Source: a virus (Duplodnaviria; Caudoviricetes). Taken from it: a stretch of 59,880 nt of DNA. Numbering within the stretch: the first letter of the stretch is position 1; every line of letters begins with the position of its first letter. The DNA is taken from IMG/VR virus record IMGVR_UViG_3300030419_004277, positions 1-59,880 of that record. One strand, written 5' to 3'. Under the pieces are notes generated by a model that was not told where the DNA came from, did no database searches, and saw only the letters and a list, made by a program, of their open reading frames with translations. The position numbers and the translations under genes were made by a program. Shown piece after piece: positions 17,712-59,872 of this stretch.

Positions 17712-17813
17712 TCATCGTCTTTTTTTGAAATATACTTTTGGTGGTCCTACTCTTTTTTTTAATTCTAATAATGTCGTTTTTTTGGACATTTTACCTTTTT
17801 GTTTTTTTGTCAT
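17712..17813 (-). CDS. small basic protein (not in ORF track)
   Basis: 33 aa MTKKQKGKMSKKTTLLELKKRVGPPKVYFKKRR; ATGA overlap with the SelW-like stop. Confidence 0.4.
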   Translation of the reverse strand: MTKKQKGKMSKKTTLLELKKRVGPPKVYFKKRR

Positions 17814-18043
17814 GTTACTTTTTGATAGCCCTCTAATAAATCCTCTATTTCATTTTTAGTTGGAAACCTACCTAAATCTTTTTTACTAAAAATTAAGCTG
17901 TTATTTAGTGTGACTTCGAATACACCACCAGAACTTTCAATCATTTTGGCTTTAATACCAAATTGTTTTTTTAGTGATTCTCTCAAACTGAGAGCTCTAG
18001 GTTCATAGTTTCACATCATACAATATTCAATTGTAATGTCCAT
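17810..18043 (-). CDS. SelW/SelT/SelH (Rdx) family selenoprotein, CxxU; in-frame TGA at 18011-18013
   Basis: AGGAG RBS; MDITIEYCMM-U-NYEPRALSLRESLKKQFGIKAKMIESSGGVFEVTLNNSLIFSKKDLGRFPTKNEIEDLLEGYQKVT; Rdx signatures I-E-Y-C-x-x-U-x-Y, GGxFEV, FSK-x4-RFP. Confidence 0.9.
17980..17994 (-). promoter_or_regulatory. putative bacterial SECIS hairpin
   Basis: CUCUCA-GUU-UGAGAG; loop G 22 nt 3' of the UGA. Confidence 0.7.
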
Positions 18044-23182: not shown

Positions 23183-24304
23183 TTACTTTAATATTGTTAT
23201 CTTTACAGCATCATTATCATTTATGATGTAATAAATACCAGCAGGTAAATTGCCTGTATTCCAAACATATTTACCCTCTAAGTCGAATTGTTTTATTAAT
23301 CTACCAGTAATATCATAAATAATTGTATAGCCGTTGCCAAAAATACTCACATTATTATTTGATGGGTTAGGAAAAGCAATAACTTTAGATTCACTCAATA
23401 ATGAGTATTGTTTTGTTAACCGCTCAAATTCTGATGGTGATACTATTGATTCAAGGTATCTAATAGCTCGTTGTTGATTTCCACCTATAACCTGTTGTAA
23501 TAAAAAAATAACATCTAAAACATTTATTGTACCGTCATCATTAATATCCGCACTTTCTATTGAACACTCATTATTAGCATAACCTAACACTAAATCTACT
23601 AACATCAATATGTCAAATAAATTAACAAAATTATCACCATTTAAGTTACCTACATAAAAAGAAATGTTATCACAAGGATCACAATAATCACCAATGCCGT
23701 CTAAATCATAATCCTCTTGGTTAGGATTGTATTCCTCTACACAATTATCAACATCATCTAATACACCATCCTCATCCATATCTAATATTAGCGTAGATAA
23801 ACCTGTTTCTATTGCCGTAATTATAGCACTTTGATTAAAACCAGATTGGGAATATATAACTTGACCAGCACCATTAATAACGATATTATGTGGCACATAT
23901 CCAACACCAAATAAAGAATAGATATTACTACCATTATTATCATCTAAAACCGGTAATGTTTGACCAAATGATGTCGCCCATCCCTCACAACTGTAAGGTT
24001 GATTCCAATCCATACCTGCTGTAACTACTTCCACTCTTTGTCCTAAATACTCTTGATAAATATACTCAATGATCGGAGCCTCCGATTGACAAGGTCCTCA
24101 CCAAGTTGCGAATGAAGCTATGAATACAACTTTGTTATGTCCAACAGAATCATAAGACCAATAACCATCGCCGTTGTAACATATTTCCGCACCAAAATCT
24201 TCTACAAAATCACCCTCAACATATGTTTGTGCTAAAACTAAATCTGATAAACCAGAAAACAAAATGAACCCAATCATCCAATATAATATTTTTTTGATTA
24301 TCAA
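23183..24304 (-). CDS. secreted thioredoxin-fold (TlpA/AhpC-TSA) selenoprotein, UxxC, with TSP3, dockerin and T9SS-like C-terminal domains; in-frame TGA at 24098-24100
   Basis: ORFs 24098..24304 and 23183..24034 are in frame and joined by 21 sense codons: VVFIASFATW-U-GPCQSEAPIIEYIYQEYLGQRVEVVTAG; DxDxDG..D..DNC repeats; GNLNGD/ADINDDG dockerin pair; FPNP...IYDITGR...LPAGIY...KITILK. Confidence 0.9.
24066..24089 (-). promoter_or_regulatory. putative bacterial SECIS hairpin
   Basis: UCA-AUCGGA-GGC-UCCGAU-CAU-UGA; loop G 17 nt 3' of the UGA. Confidence 0.75.
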
Positions 24305-24408
24305 AATATTCTCCTTATTAAATTAATTAACAGATACCAAAGTGTAAATGAAGTCGTGGGTAACAAAATTACCCAAACAAATAAATTAAACCAGTCTATT
24401 TTTCTCAC
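24301..24408 (-). CDS. small membrane peptide (not in ORF track)
   Basis: 35 aa MRKIDWFNLFVWVILLPTTSFTLWYLLINLIRRIF; overlaps both neighbours. Confidence 0.4.
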   Translation of the reverse strand: MRKIDWFNLFVWVILLPTTSFTLWYLLINLIRRIF

Positions 24409-59527: not shown

Positions 59528-59872
59528 CTACTTTATAATTAAATGTGATAATTGTATAATAATAATAATAACTGACAAAAACAAGGAAATAATTGTTCTT
59601 GTATCAGGTAACTCGTTCAAAACCAACCAAGTTAATATACCCATTGTTAATGTTGCCATACCAAATCCTATCGGTCTTACATACCAATAGTTTTGAAAGT
59701 ATTCGTAATACCACTTTGTTCCATAGAAAAAACAAAAACTTATAGGTATCCCACCAAGAACTATCCACCATAAACTTTTCATCCACTCATATCTAAATTG
59801 ACCTTGCATATGAAACCAGGCTATAATATGACCAACAAGAGATATAGACATAGCCATAAGTAACTTACTCAT
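59528..59872 (-). CDS. four-TM membrane protein (SMR/DMT-like)
   Basis: four hydrophobic helices in 114 aa. Confidence 0.6.
   Translation of the reverse strand: MSKLLMAMSISLVGHIIAWFHMQGQFRYEWMKSLWWIVLGGIPISFCFFYGTKWYYEYFQNYWYVRPIGFGMATLTMGILTWLVLNELPDTRTIISLFLSVIIIIIQLSHLIIK

Follow-up and report, generated by a model that had tools for sequence, protein, structure and literature searches.

Decoding of selenocysteine (Sec, written U in protein motifs) requires a dedicated tRNA, a dedicated elongation factor and a signal in the mRNA. For bacteria, the prototype SelB-dependent selenocysteine insertion sequence (SECIS) within Escherichia coli fdhF's open reading frame (ORF), and the rules of bSECISearch, describe a stem-loop immediately 3' of the UGA, with the apical loop 17 nt after it and a G leading the loop. 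Where Atkins et al. (2021; PMC8310308) turn to viruses, only two selenoproteins are named, the poxvirus glutathione peroxidases of molluscum contagiosum and fowlpox viruses, and a section of a 2021 marine survey (PMC9402790) reports selenoprotein families with no or very few viral sequences. The words 'phage', 'virus' and 'viral' do not occur in a 2026 review of prokaryotic selenoproteomes (PMC13188914), and our literature search for phage selenoproteins found none in print (the 'phage' matches in PMC5029168 belong to the word 'phagedenis'). Here we describe a gene on the IMG/VR virus record IMGVR_UViG_3300030419_004277, analysed as a whole and called the window below (linear, 59,880 bp, CheckV completeness 32%), which very probably encodes a phage-borne, host-derived, exported ResA/TlpA-like selenoprotein that is read by host machinery.

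Two described systems come close to this gene. The poxvirus glutathione peroxidases, as covered in that part of Atkins et al., are likewise virus-borne, host-derived redox selenoproteins dependent on host Sec machinery, and the fowlpox SECIS also lies in the coding region. However, they belong to eukaryotic viruses and use an eukaryotic-type SECIS with SBP2, whereas the gene here is carried by a bacterial virus and has a bacterial-type in-frame hairpin just 3' of the UGA. The second system comprises the marine 'Prx-like 1' and 'Prx-like 3' UxxC selenoproteins in Global Ocean Sampling data (Zhang and Gladyshev 2008; PMC2398784), which in the passages on these families are, like the window protein, marine thioredoxin-fold UxxC selenoproteins with a weak Pfam match to AhpC-TSA/Redoxin. 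The fused domain named 'Unknown_3' there has three conserved Cys residues including a CxxC and, by its description, fits the invariant C188 and C208-x-x-C211 of the protein here. Judged by these descriptions, the protein family was probably catalogued already in 2008 and would then not be new. The same passages give no organism or phage origin and describe no dockerin or type IX secretion system (T9SS)-type tail, and we found the family on phages in no paper.

The gene lies on the minus strand (24304-23183), with a TTG start at 24304 preceded at a distance of 6 nt by a Shine-Dalgarno-like AAGGAG (24311-24316, read from the sequence), and comprises 373 codons followed by TAA (23185-23183). Its only interruption is a TGA at 24100-24098, codon 69. 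The initial annotation had proposed that this TGA splits a single gene and sits at the first Cys of a thioredoxin motif, and both points held: the frame runs on without another stop before the terminal TAA, it matches homologs over residues 1-373, and the TGA stands where a thioredoxin-type motif W-C-G-P-C has its first Cys, giving F-A-T-W-U-G-P-C. Elsewhere in the window TGA is an ordinary stop, since 24 of the 71 minus-strand ORFs of at least 300 nt end in it (translation table 11; 54,231 of 59,880 nt covered; TAA 42, TAG 5). This stop usage rules out a global reassignment of TGA in the window (tables 4 and 25). Only two in-frame TGA junctions with at least 45 amino acids on both sides occur on the gene strand, the one described here and another at 59606; the latter was rejected as a second recoded site because it looks accidental, with a low-complexity frame downstream.

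We assessed which codon occupies the UGA column in homologous loci. It was TGA in all 103 loci compared (the window, 15 IMG/VR viral loci, seven loci from GTDB metagenome-assembled genomes (MAGs) and 80 metagenome loci), with no TGT, TGC or TGG. The motifs were U-PSC (63 loci), U-GPC (36), U-PTC (2), U-SPC (1) and U-SSC (1). The sample was not biased towards TGA, because the patterns used to scan for loci left the TGA out, and one of them would even favour TGG-TGG. Protein databases give a different picture: a protein search returned 238 homologs, and among the 120 listed, 96 begin after the UGA column (241-312 aa), 24 show W and none shows C. For seven of the 24 W proteins an identical 41-aa stretch was found in the analysed loci, and the codon was TGA in 7/7, while exact full-length matching of database W proteins to the analysed loci recovered 0/18. 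Because the codon is TGA in all seven checkable cases of the 24, the W at this column is best explained as an artefact of table-4 gene calling and not as Trp. A Sec column judged by protein alignment alone would therefore mislead. Public entries of the family (P0005-P0026, P0111, P0115 and others) are cut after the UGA or carry Trp, apparently through table-4 calls on short contigs.

Were the TGA a true stop, the gene would have to be in decay or split, with a 68-residue peptide and/or, starting at an internal GTG at 24034, a 283-residue protein as its products. Gene callers do annotate it in this way, and the 96 database homologs that start after the column agree with them; however, entries cut after the UGA are the standard output of a caller for any selenoprotein gene. 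The 68 codons upstream of the UGA show constraint at the protein level, and in the same frame: the last 16 of them (-48 to -1) have codon-position entropies of 0.78/0.52/1.17, a same-frame coding periodicity, and the downstream values (0.88/0.62/1.04) indicate coding on both sides, while a comparison of 14 proteins has 11 invariant columns upstream of the UGA. A split would also cut a single thioredoxin fold, and the stop stands at the same codon in 103/103 loci with no second lesion. The chance that the TGA terminates a split gene is thus minute in our estimate.

More distant relatives provide the Cys side of a Sec/Cys comparison. A representative-protein search was dominated by TSP3-repeat proteins (TSP3, thrombospondin type-3), and the N-terminal domain was covered by only 8 of the 150 listed matches; at the column these eight carry Cys in five cases (P0152, P0156, P0167, P0174, P0254), W in two and Ser in one. 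We also sampled 201 genomes from the phylum of MAG G001 (Candidatus Neomarinimicrobiota / Fidelibacterota, here Marinimicrobia), 40 of which had matches at E <= 1e-20. As read from the match table, 33 of the matches spanning residue 69 had an in-frame TGA and 12 had no stop; nine of these 12 no-stop loci were fetched, and all nine have TGT or TGC at the column. Tandem Sec/Cys paralogs, with TGA in one copy and TGT in the other, occur in three Marinimicrobia MAGs (loci L192, L195 and L196 in G040, G171 and G203). One Cys homolog, L193 in MAG G125 (FATW-C-VPC), grouped with three Sec rows (SH-like approximate likelihood ratio test (SH-aLRT) 93, quick midpoint-rooted tree) and may be a recent Sec-to-Cys convert, which we offer as a guess. 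Sequencing error at the TGA is excluded by many independent assemblies and by two RNA-library contigs (23766-24199 and 24032-24294; DNA carry-over is possible in these) that match the window exactly across the TGA. The stretch occurs in 20 public runs from eight studies of marine samples.

Just 3' of the UGA lies a core SECIS-like hairpin, AUCGGA-GGC-UCCGAU (24072-24086, minus strand; 6 bp, loop GGC), which in the minimum free energy (MFE) fold of the single sequence forms part of an extended stem-loop (24065-24093) with a lower helix CUUG/UGAG around the core. The hairpin and its G-led loop are present as initially annotated, although not quite where the stem had been placed: the distance of 17 nt is that from the UGA to the loop, and the stem begins at 11 nt. 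In its place, its loop distance and its G-led loop the hairpin resembles the fdhF-type SECIS.

Comparative evidence for this hairpin came from an alignment of 85 distinct 72-mers. Helix columns 24-29/33-38 were paired in 86.5% of cells (72.9 ± 1.2 in shuffles), and the covariation score was 0.337, against 0.103 in shuffles and at most 0.128 in slid controls; 0/500 shuffles reached either the covariation score or the paired share. Pair 26/36 was CG in 54 sequences, AU in 13, UA in nine, UG in two and other combinations in seven, one of its sides falling on a second codon position and the other on the third, synonymous position of a Pro codon. In-stem third positions are nearly fixed, with the Glu codon GAG in 78/85 and the Ala codon GCT in 78/85, and the next Glu is GAA in 77/85. 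The seven exceptions all belong to a single clade, with three stem positions altered jointly, and each of them folds another hairpin at the same place (CUGA...UCAG, -10.3 to -11.3 kcal/mol). The pattern also holds in the 77 distinct sequences left when MAG-derived ones and those of the long cellular type are set aside. All of the further cellular Sec homologs (10/10) retain GGAGGCUCC, often above a lower helix CUGU/ACAG; this equivalent of the lower helix is found in many homologs, with weak covariation there. In the three Cys homologs with retained E-A-P residues, other codons are used and GGAGGCUCC is absent. Related genomes thus conserve the TGA as well as a hairpin, the latter with compensatory changes. 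The three conditions by which the initial annotation would have been refuted, concerning homologs, sequencing error and related genomes, all turned out in its favour.

A second candidate Sec gene lies in the window at 17810-18043 (minus strand). It encodes a 77-residue protein of the SelW/Rdx family (Pfam Rdx, 67.6 bits) with C-M-M-U at codon 11 and a hairpin CUCUCA-GUU-UGAGAG after the UGA, and TGA is again its true stop. A single related viral contig was found, L210 (96% identity), and it retains the in-frame TGA. Among the MAG copies, the distant Sec paralogs (L192, L195 and L196) have a hairpin CAUCG-GUU/GUA-CGAUG about 17 nt after the UGA, so that short stems with G-led three-base loops (GGC, GUU and GUU/GUA) recur in three different genes. 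We think it likely that large T4-like Marinimicrobia phages carry a small selenoproteome of their own, comprising the U-G-P-C enzyme and a SelW-like CxxU protein, both decoded by host SelB via minimal G-led hairpins (GGC and GUU).

The domain composition of the read-through protein is that of an exported redox enzyme with several further modules. Residues 1-25 (24230-24304) form a predicted signal peptide, a hydrophobic helix ending ...VLA/QTY that was recognised by eye and corresponds to helix 2-25 of an AlphaFold2 model, with low pLDDT at residues 17-26; all full-length homologs have a hydrophobic N-terminus followed by a conserved Q-T-Y. The ResA/TlpA-like thioredoxin-fold domain (residues 49-158, 23831-24160) matched Pfam AhpC-TSA (35.4 bits), Redoxin (34.5) and Thioredoxin (28.3), all above cut-off. 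The model (14-sequence alignment; mean pLDDT 77.6, pTM 0.49) places helix 2-25, a thioredoxin fold at 38-170, a loop-rich TSP3-like stretch, dockerin-like helices at 229-298 and a beta-sandwich at 309-371 in this order, and helix 71-85 begins directly after U-G-P-C. The best Foldseek matches in the PDB were ResA (1su9_B, E 1.9e-10, TM target 0.82), DsbE, CcmG and the surface-exposed pneumococcal Etrx2, which places the catalytic domain with the exported thiol-disulfide reductases and not with the peroxiredoxins proper. The UxxC thioredoxin fold that had been called from the sequence is accordingly borne out by Pfam, model topology and the ResA match.

Across ResA, TlpA and DsbE(CcmG) (PDB 1su9, 3gl3 and 2b1k), E values ranged from 1.9e-10 to 9e-8 and TM scores (target) from 0.72 to 0.84 over about 140 residues. 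These proteins share with the phage protein the export, the W-C-x-x-C-type motif at the start of helix 1 and the conserved Pro138 loop. However, these enzymes rely on Cys and are recycled by CcdA/DsbD, and they are periplasmic proteins that are either single-domain or membrane-anchored, whereas the phage protein would carry Sec and has three additional modules, which point towards the cell surface. The TlpA-type selenoprotein of the 2026 review (PMC13188914) differs in its motif, which is UGC there and W-U-G-P-C or W-U-P-S-C here.

The three extra modules are thrombospondin type-3-like Ca-binding repeats with C188 and C208-x-x-C211 (residues 175-211, 23672-23782), a dockerin type I-like domain (residues 221-270, 23495-23644) and a C-terminal beta-sandwich resembling a T9SS sorting domain (residues 311-373, 23186-23374; model strands 309-371). 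The initial annotation had named all three, and in the window copy only the dockerin passes its Pfam threshold (Dockerin_1, PF00404, 25.3 bits, cut-off 22.9), with TSP_3 (17.6 bits, cut-off 25) and the T9SS-type tail falling below theirs. The repeats are indicated by many strong matches to TSP3-repeat proteins over residues 175-212 and by invariant D/N/C columns. For the tail, the Por_Secre_tail model scores 32.9 bits in the phage copy L010 and 45 and 45.6 bits in the cellular copies L087 and L083, and the tail is absent from some phage copies (L011 and L013-L015).

We examined the relationship of phage and cellular copies. Cellular copies have 425-460 residues after U, and phage copies have 295-307, or 228-230 without the tail; the window copy has the short architecture. 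In a quick maximum likelihood tree (SH-aLRT support, midpoint root, exact duplicates L010, L014 and L209 dropped), one clade (SH-aLRT 99) united all 14 viral rows with two MAG rows, and this clade was nested among MAG Sec copies, with the Cys paralogs outside under the midpoint root. The cellular gene is found in two MAGs immediately downstream of a DUF6029 protein (650-661 residues), with a TlpA-like redoxin of about 171 residues close by and, in L083, also an Omp28-like protein (neighbouring genes at 921-2906 and 366-881 in L087 and at 952-2904, 90-920 and 4524-5042 in L083), surroundings that look like a conserved envelope redox gene neighbourhood. The cellular proteins L087 and L083 contain an extra module of about 120 residues (~290-410) between the dockerin and the T9SS tail, with no Pfam match and absent from the phage copies. 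Judged by eye, it is reminiscent of a cohesin-like beta domain, and a single protein would then combine a dockerin with a cohesin.

The MAGs that contain homologs also encode the machinery that decoding and export would need. All five have SelA and SelB, adjacent to each other, four have SelD and three have tRNA-Sec(tca) (ARAGORN-confirmed). The T9SS translocon protein SprA (TIGR04189) was above cut-off in 5/5 of these MAGs and in 0/14 control genomes. The selD genes have one in-frame TGA each (G001:C1:12992-13918, G003:C23:9610-10530, G004:C7:396580-397506 and G002:C157:3-674), so that SelD of the candidate hosts is, as predicted from these genes, itself a selenoprotein. The nested tree position and the machinery in the MAGs together suggest that the gene was captured from Marinimicrobia and would be decoded and exported by their machinery.

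The surroundings of the gene are consistent with a phage. All long ORFs of the window lie on one strand, a peptide deformylase gene is directly upstream of the selenoprotein gene, and the window encodes UvdE, two DNA methylases, a nucleoside phosphorylase, PhoH, thymidylate synthase, an HNH endonuclease and a PD-(D/E)XK nuclease. Five related phage records were searched: a gp23-type capsid gene was found in two of them, G007 (131 kb, E 2e-76) and G008 (94 kb, E 3e-74), a terminase gene in G008 only, and both G007 and G008 carry homologs of the selenoprotein gene. The window shares seven ORFs with G008 (40-79% identity), among them the selenoprotein and deformylase genes, and is collinear with record G006 over 27.9 kb. 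These relatives, together with the IMG/VR call, agree with the earlier description of the stretch as phage-like. The read-through protein had no family in PHROGs, and tblastn against GenBank phages gave only two weak partial matches, to the redoxin domain.

Other features of these records lie apart from the selenoprotein gene. A sugar/polysaccharide biosynthesis cluster of about 30 kb (26522-56766, minus strand) encodes a GT2, two GT1, a UDP-glucose dehydrogenase, a DegT aminotransferase, a B12-radical SAM protein and methyltransferases. It is an unusual bulk for a phage fragment and the part most divergent from the collinear G006 (63-80% identity, with gaps). ARAGORN detected no tRNA gene in the window, and in G008 it placed a tmRNA gene (tag ending ...PTYAYA) beside a tRNA-Gly at about 19.6-20.0 kb (L100, 218-620).

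Several results weigh against a host-decoded phage selenoprotein, beginning with the RNA element. Folding of the window hairpin as a single sequence was no better than chance (z = -0.10; 94/200 shuffles fold at least as well), and it is the comparative evidence that lifts the hairpin above chance. RNAalifold gave no consensus structure on the 85-sequence alignment, for which reason we relied on counting pairs of the named structure, and the core pairs are in the MFE fold of only 53/85 sequences. Rfam gave no match at gathering thresholds for the whole window, nor at E up to 10 for 23900-24250. The core, with 4-6 bp and a 3-nt loop, falls far short of the E. coli fdhF-type SECIS in size. Its stem overlaps the invariant E-A-P codons, so that it is in part conserved at the protein level. 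The Cys homolog L193, the only one caught by the scan pattern, folds at -11.1 kcal/mol (a 7-bp stem in the SECIS region) compared with a Sec mean of -9.38, and folding energy therefore does not separate Sec from Cys genes.

The same observations could be explained if the UGA were read by an ordinary near-cognate tRNA (Trp, Cys or Arg), with the hairpin as a stimulator of read-through and a full-length product without selenium. The shortness of the hairpin, its lack of an Rfam SECIS match and the lack of direct selenium evidence fit such a reading, as does the failure to find Sec machinery on the phage records searched, all of them incomplete (tRNA-Sec above threshold in 0/5, selD in 0/5). However, the UGA stands exactly at the catalytic Cys of a CxxC motif that is Cys in distant homologs, the classical Sec/Cys signature. 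Redox chemistry would be lost with Trp or Arg at this site, which is nevertheless conserved in 103/103 loci, and SelA and SelB are present in all five MAGs with homologs. We consider selenium-free read-through highly unlikely.

Further counterpoints to the host-decoded phage selenoprotein concern its export, its origin and its carrier. The Por_Secre_tail (PF18962) score of the window copy is 26.3 bits, 0.7 bit under the cut-off of 27. The direction of transfer is not proven by a quick tree with a midpoint root, and Marinimicrobia (Fidelibacterota) are likely the phage hosts on the basis of gene sharing only. No capsid, portal, tail or terminase was detected among the scanned ORFs of the window, and its phage nature rests on the IMG/VR call, the typical phage genes and the relatives. 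These last points allow for a record that is a misclassified piece of a Marinimicrobia chromosome or island, with an ordinary cellular selenoprotein gene of the catalogued family; the low CheckV completeness, the large sugar cluster and the close homologs in MAGs would suit such an origin. We give it a small chance, given that seven ORFs are common to the window and G008, which encodes both gp23 capsid and terminase, that the record has its long ORFs on one strand and, in PhoH, thymidylate synthase, HNH endonuclease and UvdE, carries genes typical of phages, that the architecture is the short viral type and not the cellular one, and that the DUF6029/Omp28/TlpA neighbourhood of the MAG copies is absent around the window gene.

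Under the favoured reading of a phage-borne selenoprotein, the carrier would be a large T4-like marine phage whose gene was taken from Marinimicrobia and shortened by about 125 residues. In the infected cell, the host ribosome would meet UGA-69, and the small stem-loop 11 nt downstream would recruit host SelB with Sec-tRNA(Sec), so that Sec would be inserted in place of termination. The product would consist of a signal peptide, a ResA/TlpA-type domain with an attacking Sec (W-U-G-P-C) and a resolving Cys72, Ca-binding TSP3-like repeats, a dockerin-like module and a T9SS-type C-terminal domain. It would be exported via the host Sec translocon, and the host's type IX secretion system would probably carry it on to the cell surface, where it would act as a thiol-disulfide oxidoreductase; the phage gene would thus use both the Sec-decoding and the secretion machinery of its host. 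We infer the actual insertion of Sec, the host identity, the export route, the substrate and the benefit to the phage from the comparisons above. Candidate roles at the surface are redox maintenance, protection from oxidants and alteration of surface proteins.

If the small phage selenoproteome proposed above is real, it would hold the first selenoproteins of bacterial viruses, and phage fitness would depend on selenium supply. A phage gene that needs Sec decoding would mean that bacterial viruses can exploit recoding and that the success of a phage is tied to a trace element. It would add a class of auxiliary genes that standard annotation cuts short or, under table 4, mistranslates as Trp, and the gene would serve as a host clue (Marinimicrobia) for an abundant uncultured marine phage group. 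The very compact, natural SECIS-like element, with its abundant natural covariation, could be examined in reporters. For the infected cell, the exported enzyme would remodel the redox state of its surface.

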